DNA of 16,123 nt. Origin: a virus. Positions 2,018 through 16,123 of the stretch are shown piece by piece. Under the pieces are notes generated by a model. It saw nothing but the letters and a program-made list of their open reading frames with translations. It had not been told where the DNA came from and did not search any database. A program made the position numbers and the translations under genes. Each line of letters opens with the position of its first letter. The stretch's first letter is position 1. The stretch lies in the IMG/VR virus record IMGVR_UViG_3300045988_123035, positions 1-16,123 of that record. One strand, 5' to 3'.

Positions 2018-2797
2018 CTACCTCATCCAATCAATAGATAAGCCTAAGTTTCCGCGGTTTCCGTACGCCATCATATTAAAGTCATTTCCATGCTCGGAAA
2101 AATCATCAAAAATTGACATAAATAATTCTTCGCAATCTGCAATGATAGCGTTATTAACATTAACAATGTGTTCACGATACATTACAAGTTCGTTCATTTT
2201 ACTGCCGCGCCATCCTTTTTCTGTCCGATGGCTAGTGTCTACAACTGATGTATTACTCTTACCTGTGTTTTTTTCAGTAACTGCTCGGCTGTTCTCTTCT
2301 GTGCTTTGCCCTCTAGTCATGCCGGACGCATAGTCTGTGCCGGAAAAATTAACTTGTGGGTTATCGCTGTTAATGCGTTGGTCATTAGCGCTACTATTGT
2401 TAGTGTCGTTCATGGCTCTGTCTGCTTGTGATGTATTGCTTCCGTCGCTCGTGTCGGTGTCGTCAAATGTCATGTTTGTATTTTCCAAAATTTGTGATAC
2501 GCTTAAATTACTGTCATACATCGCTTTGTATCTTGGCATGTTTCGTGTCAGCGTGTCATTAAGCTTGAGCTTAAAAAGACCGATTGTCTCGAATCCGATT
2601 TCGCTCATATAAAAATGGATAATAAACATACGCTCGAACTCTACGCGGCTTGTCTCGTCCTCATTGTACCATGGGTACGAAAAATCGAAAAGGTGCGGTC
2701 GTCCTGTGGCTATTTTGTCGTACGTTGTAGCATTTACATTCTTCCAGTCCGTAAAGCTTTCGATATATTCCCTAATTCTGGTCGTATATGTTGCCAT
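2018..2797 (-). CDS. Lower collar protein (phi29 gp11-like), 259 aa
   Basis: The start is taken at the internal ATG 2797 (RBS GGGGGCGGAG), which overlaps the connector gene by 26 nt. It lies directly downstream of the connector, as in phi29. The HFYMSEIGFETIGLFKLKLN..MPRY pattern recalls podophage lower-collar proteins. Confidence 0.6.
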   Translation of the reverse strand: MATYTTRIREYIESFTDWKNVNATTYDKIATGRPHLFDFSYPWYNEDETSRVEFERMFIIHFYMSEIGFETIGLFKLKLNDTLTRNMPRYKAMYDSNLSVSQILENTNMTFDDTDTSDGSNTSQADRAMNDTNNSSANDQRINSDNPQVNFSGTDYASGMTRGQSTEENSRAVTEKNTGKSNTSVVDTSHRTEKGWRGSKMNELVMYREHIVNVNNAIIADCEELFMSIFDDFSEHGNDFNMMAYGNRGNLGLSIDWMR

Positions 2798-3662
2798 TTT
2801 CTCCGCCCCCTCTCTCAAGGTTTTCTTTTCTCTCAACGCCAAGACCGCTACCGATGTAGCTCACATCAACACTAAGCCCAAAAAGGCGGTTAATCTGTTC
2901 GCAAGCGCGCTTTCGCACTCCGAGAAATGATTGGCGGTTAATGAGCGTCAAATCTGCATCTTGTTCGACCTCGCTTGTAATTAAACGCTCTTTTTTTGTA
3001 CCGTCAATGTTATTTATACCAAACTGCACGCAAAAGTCTGCAATTTCTTGTCTCATTGCTGTTGTTAAGTCTCCGAAAACGTTCGGTGGGTTTAGGTTGA
3101 GTACTTTTATATTGTCAATGTTGCTTACGCCGTCTCTGACAGAAATAAAAGGTACAAAGTCATTATACTGTTTAAAAAGGTTTTTTGTGCTTAATCTCTG
3201 GTTATCACTGCCTGCAATAATAACAGGTGTTCTTTGCGCGTAAATGTTTAAATTTCTTGTCATTCTCATATTAGCCAAACTTTCCGCATACATCTGTACA
3301 TAATCTACGCTAGGATAACCAATGGCACTATCCCAAACAATAACGCTGTTTGCTTTATTAAGAGTTTTAAAATACTGCTGTGCATATGCAAAACGCGTAT
3401 TTGGTACGCCGTAAATATCAACAGTTCCGCCAAGGTTGGTTTTCATAATTGCAAATTTTTCGATAACATCATCTTCAAAAAAGACGGCTTGCCCCCACCA
3501 GAACAAATAATCTTCTAAAATTCGCGGCGGAATTTCATCCGGCAATCCTATCCATTCAAAACGGTTCACGATCATTTCATGAAGCATATTGAAATATCGG
3601 ATATAATAATTCCGGTATTGCGGCACACTGAAATATTCCGCGTCTTTTGATTGATTTTTCAT
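2772..3662 (-). CDS. Head-tail connector / upper collar (portal) protein, phi29 gp10 family (296 aa)
   Basis: It aligns by eye with phi29 gp10. [12 protein letters not shown] matches [39 protein letters not shown] matches [39 protein letters not shown] matches [28 protein letters not shown] matches REEACEKINELYGLNVKV. RBS AAGGAG. Confidence 0.9.
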   Translation of the reverse strand: [296 protein letters not shown]

Positions 3663-5408: not shown

Positions 5409-5428
5409 AATGTTTCACGTGAAACATT
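5409..5428. promoter_or_regulatory. parS: parS-like perfect palindrome, copy 1 (20 bp; 16-bp core 5411..5426)
   Basis: AATGTTTCACGTGAAACATT. The core TGTTTCACGTGAAACA is the symmetric form of the ParB/Spo0J site TGTTNCACGTGAAACA. It abuts the capsid gene stop codon (5428..5430). Confidence 0.7.
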
Positions 5429-6705
5429 TACTGATTGACTGTAACAGTACCTGTTCCGCTGATCGTGCTGTTATATCTTGATATCGCTTTTACGGTAAGC
5501 GTTGCCGCTTTCTCGTCATTGGCAATATGCAAGATATTCGACCCCGGAATAAAACTTGTATACTGGCTTGTCGCGCCCTCTACGTCAAAATCGAGCATCT
5601 GCGGCGTGTACTGATCTGTGCCTGTTACTAAGGCTGTAACCTCAACATCAGTTCCCACATTTCCGGCGGTATCTGTAACGCTCACGGTTGTAAGTCCGAC
5701 AGTATCCGTAGTAAAAACAATGCAAGGGAAAAACGGCGAATAAGAAAACATTTCCGACATTGTGTAAAAATAATTCCACGTAAGCGCCGCACCATTTCTT
5801 GAATCGGTCAGCGTCCGGAAATTCTCGCGCACATTAAAAAATCTCATATCAAACAGCGCAAGCTTGATATTGGGGTCGTCAAACTTGTCAATGATAATTT
5901 TGCGGACATTGATGTCAACTTTATCCATATTAAAGGCTGTTGCAAGCACTTCAACATCTAACTCCGCGTCAATTTCCGGCGTAGTGATATAAAAGATTGT
6001 CTGATCGTTTGCGCAACTGTCTGCTCCGGCAATATTGTACTCGGGGTGGGGAAATTTCATCTGTCCGATGTAAGCCTTTACAAGCTTTGTCAGCTTTTTA
6101 GCATTTTCTGCACTTGCTGTAGGGTCTGCAACATTAACCGCGTACAGCTGATCTGCCGCACTCGCGCTCTCAATCAGACGTTTCATGCACAAATATTCAT
6201 CCCAATTTGCCGCTGCAAAAAGACTCTGTACTTTTGCATTGATTAAATCGCGCACACCATATTCCGACCGGAACGCTGTACGCAAGTTGTCAAAAGTGAC
6301 TGTAACCGCGTACTGGATAGCGGGTGTGATCTTGTGATACGCCGCCATGACACTTGACTGATAGTAAGCATACAGTTCTGCAACTGTTGCGAACTGGTTA
6401 AACTGCTTACCTTTTGCCATGTTGATAAAAATTTCTTCTTCTGTACCACCGTAACGCATCGGGTCTCTCTTAAGCACTCCGAGAGGATTCTCAAAAAAGA
6501 CTGTCTCGATTCTCTGCTCCATGATCTGCTCTACCAACGCATTTGCAAACGCATTTCTAAGCGGTACAATATTAAGCAAACTTTCGTAAATACTAGAGAT
6601 GTTCTCCGATGTTGCTTCGGGAATCCGGTTCTGATATTCCAGACTCTGCATAGATCTTACTGCATTTAAAATAGCTACGTTCGTAGCCGGAACTTTGTTA
6701 CCCAT
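5428..6705 (-). CDS. Major capsid protein with C-terminal Ig-like (BIG2-type) domain (425 aa)
   Basis: Strong RBS GAGGAG. The gene lies directly downstream of a small acidic scaffold-like gene, as in phi29 genes 7-8. The size and the C-terminal beta-rich segment (TVSVTDTAGNVGTDVEVTALVTG..ATLTVKAIS..GTGTVTV) resemble phi29 gp8 with its Ig-like domain. Confidence 0.75.
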   Translation of the reverse strand: MGNKVPATNVAILNAVRSMQSLEYQNRIPEATSENISSIYESLLNIVPLRNAFANALVEQIMEQRIETVFFENPLGVLKRDPMRYGGTEEEIFINMAKGKQFNQFATVAELYAYYQSSVMAAYHKITPAIQYAVTVTFDNLRTAFRSEYGVRDLINAKVQSLFAAANWDEYLCMKRLIESASAADQLYAVNVADPTASAENAKKLTKLVKAYIGQMKFPHPEYNIAGADSCANDQTIFYITTPEIDAELDVEVLATAFNMDKVDINVRKIIIDKFDDPNIKLALFDMRFFNVRENFRTLTDSRNGAALTWNYFYTMSEMFSYSPFFPCIVFTTDTVGLTTVSVTDTAGNVGTDVEVTALVTGTDQYTPQMLDFDVEGATSQYTSFIPGSNILHIANDEKAATLTVKAISRYNSTISGTGTVTVNQ

Positions 6706-7014: not shown

Positions 7015-8124
7015 CTACCTACCTTTCCCTAAAAATGGTTTTAAATAGTATATAAACGGTGTCTTTCTTGCACTTGGAATAGGTGCTACACCGTATATAT
7101 TGATAGTACAATTTTGATAAATATTTGCATCACTTAAAATAAAGAAACGTATAACAACTCTCCGCAATGCTGTAACATTTACTTTGATATAGCAATAACC
7201 TCTTTCTTTTTTAACAAGTTCCGCACCATATGGTACATTAACTCCCCAATCATAATTTGATCTTACATTAAACCTAACAACAGTACCAACGTTTGCTCTC
7301 TGGCTATACGGTGTTACGTTAATTTCGGGGATGGGTGGCGCGGGTCTGTTTATCCCAATCTGGCATTGTGCAGTAACGCTCTGGCTATCAACCAACCAAA
7401 AGTTTACAACGCTTGTAACTTGTGCGCCGTTTGCGTTTCCGCTAACGATCAAAGCATTATCTTCTTTTGTCGCGGCTAAATACTGTCCAAGATTATAAGT
7501 CCATTCAGAGTTAGCATTAACTGTAATTCTAACGCTTCCCCCATCTATTATACTAGCACTAATAGGCTCTATTGTCAAGACTTTTATTTCCGGCGGCAAG
7601 ATTCCATGCATTTTATTATAAATCTGTTCCGAGTAATCAGCCCTAGTTTCTTGCGCGCCTATTCCTTGATCTTGCGGCTTTTCGTAGTTATGTAGTACAT
7701 AATCACTAGCGCTTCTAAAATCACTTGCATTTAATAAAACGTCTAGTGTAGAGCGGTAAGAGCCTGTTAATTCTTCTGTTGCAAAAGCAATTCCAAGTTC
7801 TAGTGCTCCTATGCTAGTTCCCATTTGTTCTTTTAGATTATATAGTCCTAATTTTCTGCCGGATGATGTCCATTGTGCAAATCCATAACCTTTTTGATCG
7901 TAGACAAAGCTATTTTTGCTATATTCCCCGCTATCAACCTTATTTGTATAATTAACACTAGGTGTCCAAGGTGGTGCAACATTACCTTGTATACAATACG
8001 GTATTATATGACTCTCTGCATACCAATTACCCATTAAAGCCGCGCGCCCGATTTCGTTGGGTATTAAACTAGCAAGCGCTAACCAAGTTTGCCTTATATA
8101 TCCATAATCAACTATAGCCGCCAT
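7015..8124 (-). CDS. Tail-associated peptidoglycan hydrolase (phage tail lysozyme-type N-domain) with two tandem beta-domains (369 aa)
   Basis: N-terminal motifs LMGNWYAES, GYGFAQWTSSGR and HNYEKP fit the phage tail lysozyme family (GNxxxES / GxGxxQWT). The C-terminal half is an internal tandem duplication. ATG 8124 overlaps the ATPase TGA (TGATG). Confidence 0.65.
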   Translation of the reverse strand: MAAIVDYGYIRQTWLALASLIPNEIGRAALMGNWYAESHIIPYCIQGNVAPPWTPSVNYTNKVDSGEYSKNSFVYDQKGYGFAQWTSSGRKLGLYNLKEQMGTSIGALELGIAFATEELTGSYRSTLDVLLNASDFRSASDYVLHNYEKPQDQGIGAQETRADYSEQIYNKMHGILPPEIKVLTIEPISASIIDGGSVRITVNANSEWTYNLGQYLAATKEDNALIVSGNANGAQVTSVVNFWLVDSQSVTAQCQIGINRPAPPIPEINVTPYSQRANVGTVVRFNVRSNYDWGVNVPYGAELVKKERGYCYIKVNVTALRRVVIRFFILSDANIYQNCTINIYGVAPIPSARKTPFIYYLKPFLGKGR

Positions 8125-9176
8125 CACATCAACCTCACACTAAGTATATCAAGCACAATATCCTTACATTTCAGATCTTTAAACCTCAATAAACCTAAGT
8201 CGTAAGACCTCTTAAGATAGTCATAGATAAAACTCTGACTACTCAACATTAAAGTTTCTGCGTTATGACTGCTCGCGTCAAACGTAAAGCGATATTTACA
8301 ACTCTGGTCAACAGTCCTGTCAATATACACAATACCTTTTTCTGGGTACTCTCTAACTGCATAACTATCTTTCCCGCAAACGAGCGTAAATATATAGCGG
8401 CTGTTTCCGCTTACGCTTTCGACAAAAGCTGTTGCATCACACATATAAATACCATCAGCACTACTAATCTGATAAGTGCTATCTTTAAAAATTATACCGA
8501 GTTTGCAAAGTTTTAGTGCATTTTGCGCGTCTTTATTAACAACAAACTGCGCAACCCATCCATGACCACGCAAAAATTTAGTGTTATCTCTTAATCTCTT
8601 ATGTATACCAAAAAAAATAAAATAGGGATTTAAAAGTGTCACATAATTGCCGAGCATATAAACGGGCACTTCCCGCACCTGTTTTCCTTTACCTCTGCAT
8701 ATCGTCCTTAATGTACTCTCAAATTTTGTCAATTCATTTTTTAAATATCCGTTATTCTCAAGGACAAATTCATCAAAAACGATAAGTTCTACGTCTTTAA
8801 ACATTGGGCTGTATTTTTTAAGTTTATCGGTGTTGTTAAAGTATACAGCATATCCAAGTAGTTTAACATTATCATCTTTATCATGTAGCATCATAGCACT
8901 AATCAAACCTTTTACAATACTTTTATTAGTTACGACTTTTCCATACTCTGGACAACTGTCCAAAATATCTTCATACATCTTTCCACTGCTCGAAATTTCG
9001 TCCTGTGTCCGATACAAAAAGGCAACCTGTTTATCATTCTGTACATTTTTCAAACTTTCAATTAAAAGTGCCGTTGTCTTTCCGGCGCTACGGTTTCCAA
9101 TAATCATTCTCAAAATTGGTTCATCATTATCTAAGTCTTTTATGTTTTTTATACTATCAAGATTATAAAAAGACAT
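8124..9176 (-). CDS. DNA encapsidation (packaging) ATPase, phi29 gp16-like (350 aa)
   Basis: Walker A GNRSAGKT and Walker B LIVFDEF, at a size typical of phi29-type small packaging ATPases. The start is set at ATG 9176 (RBS AAAGGGGGAAA), because the longer ORF (to 9233) would run through the tRNA gene. Confidence 0.85.
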   Translation of the reverse strand: MSFYNLDSIKNIKDLDNDEPILRMIIGNRSAGKTTALLIESLKNVQNDKQVAFLYRTQDEISSSGKMYEDILDSCPEYGKVVTNKSIVKGLISAMMLHDKDDNVKLLGYAVYFNNTDKLKKYSPMFKDVELIVFDEFVLENNGYLKNELTKFESTLRTICRGKGKQVREVPVYMLGNYVTLLNPYFIFFGIHKRLRDNTKFLRGHGWVAQFVVNKDAQNALKLCKLGIIFKDSTYQISSADGIYMCDATAFVESVSGNSRYIFTLVCGKDSYAVREYPEKGIVYIDRTVDQSCKYRFTFDASSHNAETLMLSSQSFIYDYLKRSYDLGLLRFKDLKCKDIVLDILSVRLM

Positions 9177-9194
9177 TACGTTTCCCCCTTTAAA

Positions 9195-9265
9195 CTGGAC
9201 TAGCGGGAATCGAACCCGCATTGACGGAGTCAAAATCCGTTGTCTTACCGTTAAACGATAGTCCC
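9195..9265 (-). tRNA. tRNA-Gln (anticodon UUG), no encoded CCA
   Basis: Hand-folded cloverleaf. The acceptor is GGGACUA/UAGUCC(A), with a G1.A72 mismatch. The D arm is GUUU-AACGGUA-AGAC. The anticodon arm is ACGGA-UUUUGAC-UCCGU, with U33 and A37. The variable loop is CAAU. The T arm is GCGGG-UUCGAUU-CCCGC. The discriminator is G. Confidence 0.85.
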
Positions 9266-9266
9266 T

Positions 9267-9292
9267 AGAAATGTTTCACGTGAAACATTTCT
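9267..9292. promoter_or_regulatory. parS: parS-like perfect palindrome, copy 2 (26 bp; 16-bp core 9272..9287)
   Basis: AGAAATGTTTCACGTGAAACATTTCT. It overlaps the holin stop codon by 1 nt and ends 1 nt before the tRNA 5' end. Confidence 0.7.
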
Positions 9293-9621
9293 TATTTCTT
9301 AGGCGCTTTCTCCAAGATCTCTCTTATCTTTTCCGGCACTAACTTTTTATTGATTCTGCTCACATTTTCGAAAATACTGCCGATTTCCATTAAAATAATA
9401 TATACACAAATACTCTCGAGCACCGGAACATTGAATCCCATATCAAGATAACTCTGTCCGTAGTCGATCAGAAAGCCAACTGCCACAATTACAATTTCGC
9501 CGAACTTGTTAAAAAGTCCGTCACGCATTACACTGCTGTTAAAATTACTGTTTTTAACAGCCATAACAATTCCGGTAATAAAATCAAGTACAATAAACAA
9601 CATTACGATAACAATACTCAT
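9292..9621 (-). CDS. Holin (phiLC3 / Phage_holin_4_1-type), 109 aa
   Basis: Three hydrophobic segments and family-typical motifs: LDFITGIVMAVKN....S, then LMEIGSIFEN, then a basic C-tail (PEKIREILEKAPKK). RBS GAGGAG. Confidence 0.85.
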   Translation of the reverse strand: MSIVIVMLFIVLDFITGIVMAVKNSNFNSSVMRDGLFNKFGEIVIVAVGFLIDYGQSYLDMGFNVPVLESICVYIILMEIGSIFENVSRINKKLVPEKIREILEKAPKK

Positions 9622-9772
9622 TTTCTCCTCTTTTCTGCGGCGGTAGCAATTAACAGAATTACCGCCGCGTTGATAGTTTTAGAGTTTCGCGGCATCGGTT
9701 CGCACCAACCACGGCGCGGAGCACGGTTTTTCCCGTTGGTTTACGCTCGCAAAAACCAATCCGGTACTACTC

Positions 9773-9844
9773 CATAGACTCCAATTACGCGGACATAGGA
9801 CATTTTTGTAAGGATTAGGAGGAATTTCGTAATTGGAGTCTATG
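9773..9844. repeat. 17-bp perfect inverted repeat with 38-nt spacer
   Basis: CATAGACTCCAATTACG (9773..9789) pairs with CGTAATTGGAGTCTATG (9828..9844). Confidence 0.9.
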
Positions 9845-9942
9845 CAATAGTACCACATAAATTGTTGTTTTATGCCATGTACGGCAAGCCATGCCGCTCC
9901 ATGCCGGTTTCGCCGTACATGCCATAAATGTCATTCTTACGC

Positions 9943-9970
9943 CGTGCAATGCCGTGGGTGGCATTGCACG
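9943..9970 (-). other. GC-rich 11-bp stem-loop just after the SSB stop codon
   Basis: CGTGCAATGCC / GGCATTGCACG with a 6-nt loop. There is no U tract on either strand, so it is not a classical terminator. Confidence 0.45.
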
Positions 9971-9976
9971 ATGATC

Positions 9977-10375
9977 TTATCTGTCGAACGGGTTGTACGG
10001 CGTAGCGGGAACAAGCTTAGAAATGTCGATACCCTTAAGGTATGCACTCTGGTACTTCTTGCCCTTATACTTGCCCTCAACAACCTTAAACGCGATTTCA
10101 ACCACTGAATCCGTTCCAATCTCTTCCGCTTTGATCGCTGTTTCATCTTCCGGTTTCTGCTCGACACCATCGAGATAGACAGGGAAGTCAAACTGGGTGT
10201 GTGCCTTTACAAGCTTTGTACCGTCATCGGACGTTTTGACCGGACAGTCAATCTCTGTGTTAAGACCCGCTTTCTCGATCAGCTCCGCCGCGGCTTCATC
10301 TGTAATCTCTACCATAATGGAAAACTTTCCGTCATTGGAAAATGTGGAATAAACTCTACCTGTTGCGTATAACAT
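9977..10375 (-). CDS. Putative single-stranded DNA-binding protein (OB-fold type), 132 aa
   Basis: The start is set at ATG 10375 (RBS AAGGAG). It is a small protein in the replication module. The alternating beta-like pattern with the C-terminal ..VVEIAFKVVEGKYKGKKYQSAYLKGIDISKL resembles phage SSBs (DUF2815-like), and the phi29 p5 analogue has a similar size. Weak evidence; inferred. Confidence 0.35.
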   Translation of the reverse strand: MLYATGRVYSTFSNDGKFSIMVEITDEAAAELIEKAGLNTEIDCPVKTSDDGTKLVKAHTQFDFPVYLDGVEQKPEDETAIKAEEIGTDSVVEIAFKVVEGKYKGKKYQSAYLKGIDISKLVPATPYNPFDR

Positions 10376-10431: not shown

Positions 10432-10449
10432 ATGTTTCACGTGAAACAT
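10432..10449. promoter_or_regulatory. parS: parS-like perfect palindrome, copy 3 (18 bp; core 10433..10448)
   Basis: ATGTTTCACGTGAAACAT lies in the 99-bp spacer between the acidic ORF and the SSB gene. It is flanked by direct repeats AATGTTGC (10420..10427 and 10454..10461). Confidence 0.7.
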
Positions 10450-10474: not shown

Positions 10475-10756
10475 TTACTTCTTTGACGCTTTGTAAGCGT
10501 CGTATTCCTCTGCCGTCATTGAGTTCTCGATGAACGTAGACAGCGGCATGAAGCGGGTTTCCTCTTTCCGGTCAACCTCGATCAGATTACCTTTTGCAAT
10601 ACCGAAAGACTCTAAAATCTCGTCTCTTTCCGCCGCTGTAGTAATCTCATGATCCCATTCTACAACATCTCCCATTTTAATACCATCTTCTGCCGATACC
10701 GTCATAATCTGGTATAATACTTTTGTTGGGATAGTTCTGGAAATTACCTTTTCCAT
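10475..10756 (-). CDS. Hypothetical acidic early protein (93 aa)
   Basis: Good RBS (GAGAGGAAA) and an intact ORF. It lies directly upstream of the putative SSB, the position of dsDNA-binding p6 in phi29. No recognisable motif. Confidence 0.6.
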   Translation of the reverse strand: MEKVISRTIPTKVLYQIMTVSAEDGIKMGDVVEWDHEITTAAERDEILESFGIAKGNLIEVDRKEETRFMPLSTFIENSMTAEEYDAYKASKK

Positions 10757-11156: not shown

Positions 11157-11360
11157 CTAAATTTTTAAATTTTCTTTTAAACAATTTAGAATTGTTTCTT
11201 TTATCTCAAGGTTAGCATCTATAACTTCTGGGGTTGATAATCCAAGTCCTACTAATAAATTATATAACCATAGTCCATTATAAATCATGTGCAAGCTAAT
11301 TTTATCATCAACCACTAATTTCAACACTGCATACACAGCTTCTTCTTTGCTTATTTTCAT
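11157..11360 (-). CDS. Hypothetical early protein (67 aa)
   Basis: The ATG is preceded by the conserved leader GCACAAGAAAGTGAGGA. Hydrophobic central segment (LWLYNLLVGLGL). Confidence 0.55.
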   Translation of the reverse strand: MKISKEEAVYAVLKLVVDDKISLHMIYNGLWLYNLLVGLGLSTPEVIDANLEIKETILNCLKENLKI

Positions 11361-11409
11361 ACAATAATCCTCACTTTCTTGTGCTTTTGTTTGTTATCCT
11401 TACATGATT

Positions 11410-11447: not shown

Positions 11448-11681
11448 TTAAAAATTTTGGTTCTTTTGTTCCAATTTTTTCATCAATTCGATTTCTCTCT
11501 TTTCACTAATCGTCATATATTTTTGTCGTAAATCATTGATTGCGTCACAAACTGCTTTTATGTTTGCTTCCGGTACTCTGATAGCGGCGTAAATGTACAG
11601 CTTGCAAGTATTAAAGTCGGACGGTTCGAAGATATGTGCTTCAAACATACGAGATAACTCTAAGTACACTCTTTCTCTCAT
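11448..11681 (-). CDS. Hypothetical early protein (77 aa)
   Basis: ATG 11681 behind the GCACAAGAAAGTGAGGA leader. No recognisable motif. Confidence 0.55.
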   Translation of the reverse strand: MRERVYLELSRMFEAHIFEPSDFNTCKLYIYAAIRVPEANIKAVCDAINDLRQKYMTISEKREIELMKKLEQKNQNF

Positions 11682-11725
11682 TATTATTCCTCACTTTCTT
11701 GTGCTTTGTTATCCTTACACTATGT

Positions 11726-12001: not shown

Positions 12002-12048
12002 AGTATTCCTCACTTTCTTGTGCTTGTTGTTTATTTCCTTGCATGATT

Positions 12049-12090: not shown

Positions 12091-14238
12091 TTATTCGCAA
12101 TTATCTATAAAATTTCTGCCTATAATTTCTGAATATTCATCCGTAATCCCTAAAGTATAAGTTGTGTCTACAATCGCAATGTTTGACGCTGTTGTAAACG
12201 TTGACTTTTTACCCATATAATCTGTTATTGTTATCGAATGTATGTTAGATTCATTAAAATAAGAAACTGTGCGTCCAGAATCAATAAAAAGCTTTCCAAT
12301 TTTAAAATCACTTATGCCGTTTCCGCGCTCTAACTCTGCCGCTCCTTTTTGTTTTGATAGACCAGATACAGTAACATGTAACTTGTTATCTTTGCTATCT
12401 ATGTATGCGTACTTTTTTGCACCTAGCGTCTTAAATTTTTTATAATTACCGTCGTCATCCCATATCCCTAAATAAAAACGCGTTGCAGTACCATCTTCAT
12501 TTTGGCGATCTGCATAATTGCGATAACGTTGTTTTTTTGCTAATAAGTAATCATTCCGGTCTTTAAAGCTTTGTAAATGCTGTTTTCCTATGAATTTTAC
12601 GCTATCAGTGTCGGCGTAGACAAAATCCCACCCAACAGCATCAATCATTTTTTGCAATTCCCATCTTGCATTAGCTGTAATGTACACTCCCCATTGATAG
12701 AGTAAAAACGAATTTTTTGAAGCTGTATAACTAGCTATTGATTCTAACAAATCCGGTGTAACTTTTGTCCACTCTCCGTCTGTGTAAACTATTTCATCAT
12801 GGCATATGTCTGTAACCATAGTACCAAAAACAGAGTTTAAGCTGTTTTTGCTTTTCATGTACTCGTATTCTTTCCCCGCTACATCCTTAAGTTGAGTTTT
12901 TTTGTCGTAAAACTCTAACATAGTGCTTACTATTGGTGCTGGCAAATAATCTTTTTTCGCCATGTAACCGCGTATCCACTCTATATCCTCAAAATGATAT
13001 TGATTGCAGATAATAATAAAGTCTAGTTCCGTGCAAGCATACGTTACCCATTCAGCCGATAACACGCGCCCGTTGTCGTTTATATACTCTTTACTAAATG
13101 ACGTACAATGCGCAAAGTCTATATAAGGCACTGTAACATCATCATGTACTGTTATAGTCTTAAATGTTACATGCATAATGATAGCGTTTTGTTTTTTGTT
13201 ACAATCAGATAATAATTGTGTAAAGTTTTTTGGTGTATACTCTGTAAACGGTGTCATAGGGTACAAATCAGAGCATATACATGATGGATAACTTGACACT
13301 CTATCCATGCTGTATACATTTTCAATTATTGCGTCCGCATAATATCTACTGGCATGTGTGTTACCTCCGCGAAAAGCTTTCCGCAATAATGTATAAACTT
13401 CCGGTGTAGGCATAAGAGTTTCAAACAATTCTCTATAATTCTTGTCCTCTCTGCAAGCTTTGCGCATTTCACGACGCACGTATCCGGTCGATGTTAGAGG
13501 TATTGTTGCTAATGTATCATTGTAATCATCCATTTTTGACAGTATACATTCCTCAAGTCCTTTTACATCATTATAGTCATATGCTAACTCTGTTTTAGTT
13601 TGCGGTGTATCTGGCGTACGCACTTTTTTATAATCATATCTATCTTGTAGCTTATAATGTACACAAAATTTTGAATTTTCACAAAATTTTGCTAAACTCA
13701 TGTTTGATAAAAAATAACTACACCTAAATTCAAAATGCGGAAATGTTTCACGTGAAACATTCAATTTGTTTATTGTTTTTAAATAATCTGACTTTAAACA
13801 GGCATTAAATTTAATGACCTTGTGCGATTCACGCGCAAAAAGTGATTCTATATATAAAAAATCCTTTACAAACATAAATTCATAAGCTAAATTATGTACA
13901 TAAATGACTAATTGTTTTGACGCTGATAATTCTAGGTATTCTCCTAGTTTACTTAAAAACATACTGAATTCTTCCCACCGTCTACCAAAACAAACATTCC
14001 CTTTGTAACAAAACTGCCAATGATACATAAATGCATAAGGTTTTTCACTGTTTATTGTTGTAGATTCTATATCAAATGTTGCAGGGCTATCTATATAAGC
14101 AATAGCCCTTTTGCCTTTTTTTCTAACTGTAGTATAATTCCAATTTATTACGTTGTATGGATAATCGTATACTGTATAAACTGTTTCATTTTTTGTATAT
14201 TCTTTCCCGTTTTTTGTATAAAATGTTTGTATTACCAT
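12091..14238 (-). CDS. Family B DNA polymerase, protein-primed type (715 aa)
   Basis: Exonuclease motifs: Exo I FDIEST, Exo II VHNLAYEF, Exo III YDYNDVKGL. Polymerase motifs: motif A DRVSSYP (DxxSLYP), motif B KNSLNSVFG (KxxxNSxYG), motif C YADTDS (YxDTDS), and KxY GAKKYAY. It sits next to a small basic ORF in a genome with ITRs. Confidence 0.95.
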   Translation of the reverse strand: MVIQTFYTKNGKEYTKNETVYTVYDYPYNVINWNYTTVRKKGKRAIAYIDSPATFDIESTTINSEKPYAFMYHWQFCYKGNVCFGRRWEEFSMFLSKLGEYLELSASKQLVIYVHNLAYEFMFVKDFLYIESLFARESHKVIKFNACLKSDYLKTINKLNVSRETFPHFEFRCSYFLSNMSLAKFCENSKFCVHYKLQDRYDYKKVRTPDTPQTKTELAYDYNDVKGLEECILSKMDDYNDTLATIPLTSTGYVRREMRKACREDKNYRELFETLMPTPEVYTLLRKAFRGGNTHASRYYADAIIENVYSMDRVSSYPSCICSDLYPMTPFTEYTPKNFTQLLSDCNKKQNAIIMHVTFKTITVHDDVTVPYIDFAHCTSFSKEYINDNGRVLSAEWVTYACTELDFIIICNQYHFEDIEWIRGYMAKKDYLPAPIVSTMLEFYDKKTQLKDVAGKEYEYMKSKNSLNSVFGTMVTDICHDEIVYTDGEWTKVTPDLLESIASYTASKNSFLLYQWGVYITANARWELQKMIDAVGWDFVYADTDSVKFIGKQHLQSFKDRNDYLLAKKQRYRNYADRQNEDGTATRFYLGIWDDDGNYKKFKTLGAKKYAYIDSKDNKLHVTVSGLSKQKGAAELERGNGISDFKIGKLFIDSGRTVSYFNESNIHSITITDYMGKKSTFTTASNIAIVDTTYTLGITDEYSEIIGRNFIDNCE
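13742..13761. promoter_or_regulatory. parS: parS-like perfect palindrome, copy 4 (20 bp; core 13744..13759), inside the polymerase ORF
   Basis: AATGTTTCACGTGAAACATT. It is read in frame as N160-V-S-R-E-T-F166 of the polymerase. Confidence 0.7.
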
Positions 14239-15751: not shown

Positions 15752-15780
15752 ATTTTAAACCTACTATATAAAATTGTCAA
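15752..15780 (-). promoter_or_regulatory. Strong SigA-type early promoter (first promoter inside the right ITR boundary)
   Basis: Minus strand: TTGACA, 17 nt, TAAAAT. It lies about 45 nt upstream of the amidase ATG. Confidence 0.7.
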
Positions 15781-16074: not shown

Positions 16075-16123
16075 AGATCGGAAGAGCGTCGTGTAGGGAA
16101 AGAGTGTAGATCTCGGTGGTCGC
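16075..16123. other. Illumina TruSeq P5 adapter remnant (reverse complement); synthetic
   Basis: AGATCGGAAGAGCGTCGTGTAGGGAAAGAGTGTAGATCTCGGTGGTCGC, which is the A-tail base plus the adapter read-through sequence. Confidence 0.97.

Follow-up and report, generated by a model that had tools for sequence, protein, structure and literature searches.

The gene-free gap at positions 9622–9976 of the virus record IMGVR_UViG_3300045988_123035 (IMG/VR), whose 16,123 nucleotides (nt) are referred to here as the window, almost certainly encodes a real, conserved and structured non-coding RNA, and on balance this RNA is probably the equivalent, in its phage lineage, of the packaging RNA (pRNA) of phage phi29. 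The gap corresponds to one RNA of about 290–330 nt on the minus strand, which is the gene-sense strand, and the best reading of it is that of a pRNA equivalent that has been relocated, enlarged and topologically permuted. pRNA, which in phi29 links the motor that packages the DNA to the capsid and is a workhorse of RNA nanotechnology, is to our knowledge the only natural RNA that acts as a ring of identical molecules inside a molecular motor. A pRNA candidate had been suspected at this place in the original prediction, which was drawn from the letters of the window; the suspicion is now backed by a junction fold supported by covariation, by a motor of the gp16 and gp10 type and by RNAs lying next to the ATPase gene in relatives, whereas a match to the Rfam family RF00044 is lacking.

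The window is a complete linear phage genome of 16.1 kb with every gene on the minus strand, and the virus is a phi29-like podophage. As had been noticed before, the 355 bp of the gap are the only long non-coding stretch of this genome besides the inverted terminal repeats, the next longest gaps measuring 119 and 102 nt. The G+C content of 9661–9960, formerly estimated at about 49%, was measured as 49.0% against 38.1% window-wide, a value reached by only 0.5% of 300-nt segments. The stems that had been listed all proved exact, with 9 bp and no mismatch at 9637–9645/9660–9668, 17 bp and no mismatch at 9773–9789/9828–9844, 15 bp with one mismatch at 9871–9885/9912–9926 and 11 bp and no mismatch at 9943–9953/9960–9970, the second of them being part of 40-nt arms that are 80% complementary. 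The stretch at 9700–9760, which had been described as holding several alternative pairings, can be refined into the best-conserved and most informative part of the gap, namely the core of a three-way junction. When folded as RNA, the minus strand reaches -144.2 kcal/mol as against -99.1 ± 5.4 kcal/mol for shuffles (z = -8.3), and the plus strand reaches -129.9 kcal/mol (z = -5.4).

An ATPase search of IMG/VR returned 37 loci, 36 of which belong to the window's own two clades, and look-ups by pattern and by protein contributed 14 more loci, found in Logan and ENA assemblies, as well as one metagenome contig. All relatives keep a gene-free gap of 333–361 nt at the same place, and a covariance model of the 95-nt core of the window RNA (hereafter R1) has a single match, invariably on the sense strand, in each of 46 relatives out of 46. 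The neighbouring 131-aa protein is 79–99% identical to that of the window in clade 1 and about 38% identical in clade 2; the invariant RNA motifs UAUUGCA, AUGGAGUA.UACC, CGUA.ACC, GGAAAAAC, GUGGU and GCGAA.CUCU are common to both clades. Within clade 1, the core is 98% identical, compared with 85–93% for the flanking coding DNA, and is under stronger conservation than the flanking genes. A motif scan of the viral collection for further members of the family returned only contigs already known and one of the metagenome collection returned a single new contig; 15 motif matches in the genome collection, scoring 13–17 bits with R1, were discarded as chance.

With regard to the covariation check that accompanied the original prediction, the helices are kept through compensatory changes in both clades. 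For the core across both clades, 96.5% of the alignment cells are paired, as against 32–38% in slid controls, and 13 pairs have changed on both sides; in the model-fitted alignment, which is biased toward the structure used for fitting, the values are 100% paired, 34–39% in slid controls and 17 of 26 pairs changed on both sides. Over the full length, clade 1 shows 99.8% paired cells (slid controls 31–41%) with six pairs changed on both sides, four of them in the long hairpin H3, and clade 2 shows 99.0% (slid controls 31–48%) with 15 such pairs. The three-way junction was recovered independently by RNAalifold.

Many of the pairs are G-U pairs, either fixed or alternating with G-C and A-U, and because G-U pairs become A-C mismatches on the plus strand, they settle the strand and rule out a purely DNA-level element. 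Such an element, whether a late promoter accompanied by palindromic operators, a signal for replication or packaging or a set of cruciforms, is very improbable. It could appeal to the facts that inverted repeats are DNA palindromes too, that the gap sits at the boundary between transcription phases and that both strands fold better than shuffles. However, substitutions maintain pairing by passing through G-U pairs that only one of the strands allows, stem sequences have been exchanged for unrelated ones without loss of pairing, and what is conserved includes non-palindromic long-range helices and a three-way junction. Neither a sigma-70-like promoter nor an intrinsic terminator was found on the coding strand within 9622–9976. 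The earlier suggestion of a late promoter with its regulator sites is without support, and the substitutions follow the pattern of an RNA rather than that of sites bound by protein on DNA.

Next to no credence is due to the idea that the gap encodes small proteins. Two open reading frames (ORFs) on the minus strand, one of 59 aa (9679–9858) and one of 49 aa (9815–9964), are open with ATG starts in the window, but they are intact in only 3 and 8, respectively, of 36 close relatives, and the region contains indels of 1, 10, 11 and 20 nt. No ribosome-binding site is visible for them, protein family searches gave no match for either, and independent gene callers and pipelines called no gene in the gap. 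Given the broken ORFs, the missing promoter and the strand-specific G-U pairs, the protein-coding and DNA-level readings are effectively excluded. Rfam searches of the whole window and of a 481-nt slice (9560–10040) returned only chance microRNA-like matches to the H3 hairpin.

The three-way junction core occupies about 9690–9763 on the minus strand, as do all elements of the RNA described here, and begins after H3 without any linker. Its closing helix A pairs the 5' strand CGGAUUGGU (9755–9763), which abuts the 3' arm of H3, with the 3' strand ACCGAUGCCG (9690–9699), leaving one bulged base, and six of its nine pairs change on both sides between the clades. A single strand, UUUUGC, leads from the 5' strand of helix A to helix C, in which GAGC (9745–9748) pairs with GCUC (9719–9722), all four pairs being compensatory in the model-fitted alignment. 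The 5'-side bulge GUAAACCA (9737–9744), the counterpart of the CE loop of phi29, is followed by the E hairpin ACGG-GAAAAA-CCGU (9723–9736), whose 4-bp stem has three compensatory pairs and whose 6-nt loop is invariant save for an A-to-G variant in a few sequences. Past the C' strand, one unpaired C precedes the D hairpin GCGCC-GUGGUU-GGUGC (9702–9717), in which three of five pairs are compensatory and the loop GUGGU is invariant; a GA then connects to the 3' strand of helix A. In clade 1, the AACC of the bulge (9738–9741) is complementary to the GGUU of the D loop (9707–9710). The corresponding pair in clade 2 is CACC/GGUG, one member of clade 1 has AACU, which gives a U-G wobble, and 100% of the cells are paired; no further state of this kissing pair was seen among the Logan and ENA contigs of both clades.

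In the Rfam structure line of phi29 pRNA, the termini pair to form the A helix, and a single U leads to a C helix of 9 bp, which has the bulge GAUUAAACC on its 5' side. There follow an E hairpin with four base pairs and a loop of 6 nt, the C' strand, UUU, a D hairpin with the loop UGGUU and, finally, the A' strand. Like phi29 pRNA, the window RNA is encoded by a small podophage of the protein-primed kind that has a connector of the gp10 type and an ATPase of the gp16 type, and the elements of its three-way junction core follow one another as in phi29, namely A, C, 5' bulge, E hairpin, C', D hairpin and A'. The two RNAs also agree in carrying the bulge on the 5' strand of the C/E arm, in the size of the E hairpin (4 bp and 6 nt in the loop), in having a U-rich junction strand and in a core length of about 75 nt, and in both AACC stands at the 3' end of the bulge and GGUU in the D loop. 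pRNAs are defined by kissing loops and a three-way junction of strongly divergent sequence, and a pRNA domain of about 75 nt is sufficient for self-association and motor binding (PMC4201828). The two RNAs differ in that the C helix has 4–5 bp in the window RNA and 9 bp in phi29, and in that the U-rich strand lies between the A and C helices in the former and between C and D in the latter. In addition, a capped H3 of 26 bp abuts the closing helix of the window RNA, which amounts to the topology of a circular permutation; two further hairpins stand on the 5' side, giving a length of about 300 nt as opposed to 120–174 nt, and the host of the window phage is not Bacillus.

The strongest support for the pRNA reading is a complementary distribution with RNAs that lie next to the ATPase gene in more distant gut and Clostridium phages. 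An alignment of the ATPase retrieved 69 loci with ATPases 34–44% identical to that of the window, and nearly all of them have a gap of about 150–290 nt behind the ATPase gene. This gap contains an RNA of 111–133 nt, which begins a few bases past the ATPase stop (GGUAUC...), ends with ...GAUAU and is followed by an intrinsic terminator. Its fold resembles that of a classical pRNA: the termini form an A helix of about 20 bp that contains a bulge of 3 nt, and the other elements are a three-way junction, a C helix bulged on its 5' side, an E loop rich in A and a D hairpin. Of the alignment cells, 87% are paired, as against 32–42% in slid controls, and 29 of 35 pairs change on both sides. The pairing between bulge and D loop is 94% kept and covaries at four of four pairs, with examples such as AGCA/UGCU, UGAC/GUCA, GGCA/UGCC, ACAC/GUGU, AUGC/GCAU and GGAA/UUCC. 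A covariance model of these ATPase-adjacent RNAs (hereafter R2) has one match in each of 64 loci out of 70, in every case immediately 3' of the ATPase stop, for instance at 10553–10665 of the cultured Clostridium phage CS229P1 (L046 = OP172772.1), where it is unannotated, at 10289–10421 of L045, at 1815–1926 of L037 and at about 4030–4170 in L060–L126.

A shorter RNA behind the ATPase gene is found in the group of Clostridium phage HM2, at about 6105–6195 of HM2 itself (L044 = LT600745.1), about 4055–4140 of L059 and about 2450–2535 of L057. It consists of a C helix, a 6-nt bulge and an E hairpin, followed by a terminator and a promoter, and its bulge and loop are complementary over 5–6 nt in a manner that covaries among the three sequences (GUAGUC/GACUAC in HM2, UGACU/AGUCA in L059). 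Neither the ATPase-adjacent nor the HM2-group RNAs have an Rfam family.

The ATPase-adjacent RNAs resemble the window RNA in the type of phage, in the single copy per genome, in beginning right after a stop codon and in having a C helix, a 5'-side bulge, an A-rich E loop (GUGAAAGAAA, as compared with GAAAAA in the window) and a D loop complementary to the bulge. They differ in their length of 95–133 nt, in the long A helix formed by the 5' and 3' ends (GGUAUC...GAUAU) with its 3-nt bulge, and in having their own intrinsic terminator and a place directly 3' of the ATPase gene, neither of which applies to the window RNA. The latter is located two genes upstream of the ATPase gene, whose end (8124) overlaps the next gene, so that the window has no non-coding gap behind it. 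More generally, the window clades have neither this gap nor an ATPase-adjacent RNA, and the distant groups are without the window-type RNA; each lineage therefore has a single RNA of this fold, at one of these two places.

The original prediction had also stated that no other pRNA candidate is evident in the genome, and this holds, as the terminal repeat, the one remaining long non-coding stretch, is without such a junction. Considered as a pRNA site, the repeat was rejected: although structured (z = -6 to -8) and conserved, it offers no junction whose loops are complementary, and what it shows instead is a terminator hairpin, boxes that resemble promoters and the terminal sequence repeated internally.

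Several observations weigh against the identification with pRNA and have to be set beside this evidence. First, sequence models do not link the RNAs. RF00044 (Phage_pRNA) gives no match at E ≤ 10 in the whole window or in 9560–10040, although the same search scores phi29 at 145 bits, and hence the Infernal comparison with the pRNA family that had been proposed as a check came out negative. R2 reaches at best 3.9–5.1 bits in the window gap (E = 0.5–1 in a search space of 355 nt), and this on H3; nor does it match in clade 2, in HM2 or at the left end of phi29, so that there is no bridge to classical pRNA. R1, in turn, has no match in HM2, MT835854, CS229P1, L037 or the 69 loci with ATPases 34–44% identical. 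As R1 and R2 fail to detect each other's RNAs, the likeness is one of architecture and homology is not demonstrated; common descent among the RNA groups and phi29 is unproven, no model bridging any two of them. Second, the likeness itself has its weak sides. The closing helix of the window RNA has 9 bp plus one bulge and is not made from the ends of the RNA, in contrast to about 25 bp in phi29, and some 200 nt of 5' structure (H1–H3) have no counterpart there. A loose hand-written descriptor of the pRNA core fits the window at 21 sites and was dropped as evidence; topology alone is a weak argument, and the likeness carries weight only through the independent support for the helices. The covariation between bulge and loop within the window family amounts to one double change and one wobble, and the probability that a bulge of 8 nt and a loop of 6 nt match over 4 nt by chance is estimated at about 6%. 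Third, phi29 has its own pRNA near the left genome end, behind promoter A1, whereas the window RNA is internal, between early and late genes, and without a promoter or terminator of its own; it would therefore have to be processed from a longer transcript. The pRNA reading is partly supported, being favoured by the comparative evidence on grounds of structure and context only.

The lack of a model bridge is not unusual for pRNAs, since the proposed pRNA of Streptococcus phage Cp-1 is also missed by models built on Bacillus phages. The Cp-1 pRNA is described as proposed from secondary structure and as not reliably detectable by Bacillus-based covariance models (PMC6266182); this non-Bacillus member of the group resembles the window RNA in that respect.

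A rival reading is that of a trans-acting phage RNA unrelated to packaging, serving for example in host take-over, in anti-defence or as a decoy, whose resemblance to pRNA would be due to convergence and whose bulge and loop would form an intramolecular pseudoknot. In favour of it, there is no model-level homology to any pRNA, the generic topology is common, the additional domains H1–H3 are large and the location is unlike that of all known pRNAs. Nevertheless, it would require a coincidence of the fold, the identical placement of AACC and GGUU, the gp16/gp10 motor and the either/or distribution described above, in a genome without any other pRNA candidate, and it is considered unlikely, albeit not far-fetched.

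If the RNA is indeed a pRNA equivalent, it would probably be co-transcribed with the neighbouring genes and then cut out. Its 3' domain (about 9690–9763) would be the counterpart of the prohead-binding, ring-forming domain of phi29 pRNA, and, by analogy with phi29, the bulge AACC of one molecule would pair with the D-loop GGUU of the next, with several copies closing into a ring around the connector of the empty capsid; pairing within one molecule, as a pseudoknot, is the alternative. The long helical arm, in which the 9-bp closing helix is probably stacked on the 26-bp H3, would hold the DNA-pumping gp16 ATPase. Since the 3' arm of H3 runs directly into the 5' strand of helix A, stacking into a capped arm of about 35 bp is possible. 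The presumed protein partner of the RNA is the gp16-type DNA encapsidation ATPase (8124–9176, minus strand; PF05894, E = 4.6e-23; phrog_2150, E = 3.5e-50) and its presumed docking site the gp10-type connector, or upper collar (2772–3662, minus strand; PF05352, E = 1.5e-46; phrog_2038, E = 9.1e-60).

In the modelled secondary structure, the chain would enter and leave at a nick 9 bp from the junction, from which we infer the topology of a circularly permuted pRNA. In 1997, Zhang, Tellinghuisen and Guo reportedly made circularly permuted phi29 pRNAs, in which the original ends were joined and the opening was moved, and which kept their activity. Those were laboratory constructs, whereas the topology of the window RNA, as read from secondary structure only, would be a natural one.

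On the 5' side of the core, the RNA continues into H3, H2 and H1, and on its 3' side into a conserved tail. H1 (9944–9969), which begins 6 nt past the upstream stop codon, has a G+C-rich stem of 10–11 bp and a 6-nt loop; it is 100% paired, with G-C to G-U changes and one compensatory change in clade 1. H2 (9869–9928) has a 17-bp stem and a branched apical part with GGCAUG repeats. These direct repeats make up its tip (9887–9910), from which 10–20 nt are deleted in three relatives (L010, L019 and L027), a pattern consistent with slippage; the tip is therefore dispensable. H3 (9763–9854) is formed by the arms 9828–9854 and 9763–9789, which give 26 bp, and a 38-nt apical loop (9790–9827). It has four compensatory pairs within clade 1, and in clade 2 its stem sequence is wholly replaced, with seven compensatory pairs. 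The loop contains a conserved AAAUGUCC and a CCUCC motif. Its segment UUCCUCCU is similar to the anti-Shine-Dalgarno end of 16S rRNA and shows complementarity to the ribosome-binding site of the holin gene; the segment occurs in both clades and is lost to an 11-nt deletion in five relatives. A link between the UGUCCG of this loop and the genome termini was considered and rejected, as copies with one mismatch are scattered genome-wide and the motif is not distinctive. Downstream of the core, the tail CGAAACUCU (9681–9689) is invariant, reading GCGAA[A/C]CUCU in both clades, and in an alternative fold it could pair with the GGAGU in the 3' arm of H3. Clade 2 has an additional helix between the first bases of the gap and a GCGGC just past the junction, which suggests that the whole gap is one RNA with defined ends.

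Closest to the holin gene lies a further hairpin, H5 (9637–9668), which is present in clade 1 only, has a 9-bp stem and an almost invariant 14-nt loop, and is followed by the holin ribosome-binding site. Over 36 clade 1 sequences, its stem varies by one G-C to G-U change and its loop by one base in two sequences. Being missing from clade 2, H5 is outside the conserved core; its near-invariance in clade 1 together with this absence suggests a sequence-specific role; the hairpin may be a site of RNA processing or of protein binding, or may stabilise the holin mRNA at its 5' end.

The placement of these elements bears on the possibility that the RNA is a cis-acting leader of the late transcript (holin, tRNA, ATPase and structural genes), which would control the timing or yield of downstream expression by processive antitermination, by RNA processing or stability, or by masking of the holin ribosome-binding site through the CCUCC of the H3 loop or the CUCU tail. 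The gap lies directly upstream of the holin Shine-Dalgarno sequence, at the boundary of early and late genes and in a genome with all genes on one strand, it has no promoter or terminator of its own, UUCCUCC is found in the H3 loop of both clades, and H5 abuts the Shine-Dalgarno sequence in clade 1. By contrast, there is no terminator for read-through, and both the minimum-energy and the centroid fold leave the Shine-Dalgarno sequence free, although it may take part in a long-range interaction. Five relatives (L002, L005, L020, L027 and L036) have lost the CCUCC segment, H5 is missing in clade 2 and Rfam gives no cis-regulatory family match. Moreover, the strongest constraint falls on the three-way junction and not on the part adjacent to the ribosome-binding site, and a leader leaves unexplained both the complementarity of bulge and loop and the similar fold that relatives have behind the ATPase gene, with its own terminator. 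As a full account of the RNA this reading is therefore quite unlikely, but a leader role could possibly exist in addition to a pRNA role.

With respect to the genomic setting, the genes follow each other on the minus strand in the order amidase, possible terminal protein and 715-aa ORF, then several small ORFs and a 131-aa ORF without family, then the gap, then holin (PF05105), tRNA-Gln and the gp16-type ATPase (PF05894), and lastly tail lysozyme, scaffold, capsid, gp9-type knob, gp10-type connector and fibres; family searches of the window proteins also matched PF20934. The 715-aa ORF (12091–14238) occupies the place where the gene of relatives matches PF03175 (DNA_pol_B_2) and, by position, would be the protein-primed type B DNA polymerase. 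The 131-aa ORF (9977–10372, minus strand) borders the gap upstream with its stop at 9977, and the holin gene (9292–9621, minus strand) borders it downstream with its start at 9621. Between the holin and ATPase genes, a tRNA-Gln (UUG) lies at 9195–9265 (57 bits); some clade 2 relatives have only 44 nt at this place, too short for a tRNA. Since the mechanically delimited ORF 8124–9233 extends into the tRNA, the true start of the ATPase is the ATG at 9176. Among GenBank phages no close relative was found, the sole matches being to sequencing-adapter ends, and the closest cultured relative is Clostridium phage HM2, with an ATPase that is 44% identical.

The genome ends are perfect inverted repeats of 321 nt each. 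Positions 1–49 and 16075–16123 consist of the Illumina adapter ACACTCTTTCCCTACACGACGCTCTTCCGATCT, with 100% matches to unrelated phage records, so that the true genome termini lie at about 50 and about 16074. After removal of the adapter, the terminal inverted repeat (50–321/15803–16074) is still perfect over about 272 nt; it is conserved to 96–100% within clade 1 and to about 70% in clade 2. An inverted copy of the terminal GCGGACACUGUUUU stands about 200 nt inward (254–282), which makes a panhandle-like stem possible in single-stranded form, and a conserved terminator hairpin lies inside the repeat at 154–184.

Other repeated elements are spread over the genome. A perfect 16-nt palindrome, TGTTTCACGTGAAACA, occurs four times (5411–5426, 9272–9287, 10433–10448 and 13744–13759; 0.01 expected), with three copies intergenic and one within the polymerase gene. 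In L060 and L046 it lies between the ATPase stop and the pRNA-like RNA, and in L045 and L061 near terminators; it may be a shared regulator-binding or RNA-processing site. A repeated cassette, AGCACAAGAAAGTGAGGA (11360–11385, 11681–11706 and 12013–12038), precedes the start codons of three small early ORFs, and the minus strand has strong consensus promoters at 15780, 12077, 11439 and 11147. In combination, the cassettes and promoters suggest a series of early transcription units.

A 2024 review described pRNA as unique to phi29 and related Bacillus phages (PMC11476376). A search of the available literature yielded no description of pRNA-like RNAs in gut or clostridial phi29-like phages. The present findings suggest that packaging RNA of the phi29 type exists, in rearranged form, outside Bacillus phages, and their novelty rests on new hosts, a new genomic position, a larger size and a permuted topology. 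Taken jointly, the RNA groups can be read as indicating that prohead RNA is a general part of the phi29-type motor, with at least three architectures in gut and clostridial phages, a tentative generalization that falls somewhat short of an even chance. These architectures would be the terminal-helix form behind the ATPase gene, the short HM2 form and the window's natural permutation of about 300 nt, the last being embedded in a polycistronic transcript at the boundary of early and late genes. In the strongest version of this joint reading, the window RNA would be bifunctional, tuning the holin and late genes while in the mRNA or by way of its CCUCC loop, and assembling on proheads once released, which would tie the timing of lysis to packaging.

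On the practical side, the analysis fills a gap, as these RNAs are absent from Rfam and from the annotation of the cultured phages CS229P1 and HM2. If the identification with pRNA is true, the pRNA system would reach a large uncultured group of gut phages, and dozens of natural three-way junctions and kissing pairs would become available for comparison and engineering. It would also mean that permutation and large insertions in the arm that holds the ATPase are tolerated in nature, and it would become testable which parts of pRNA are truly needed for the coupling of ATPase and connector.

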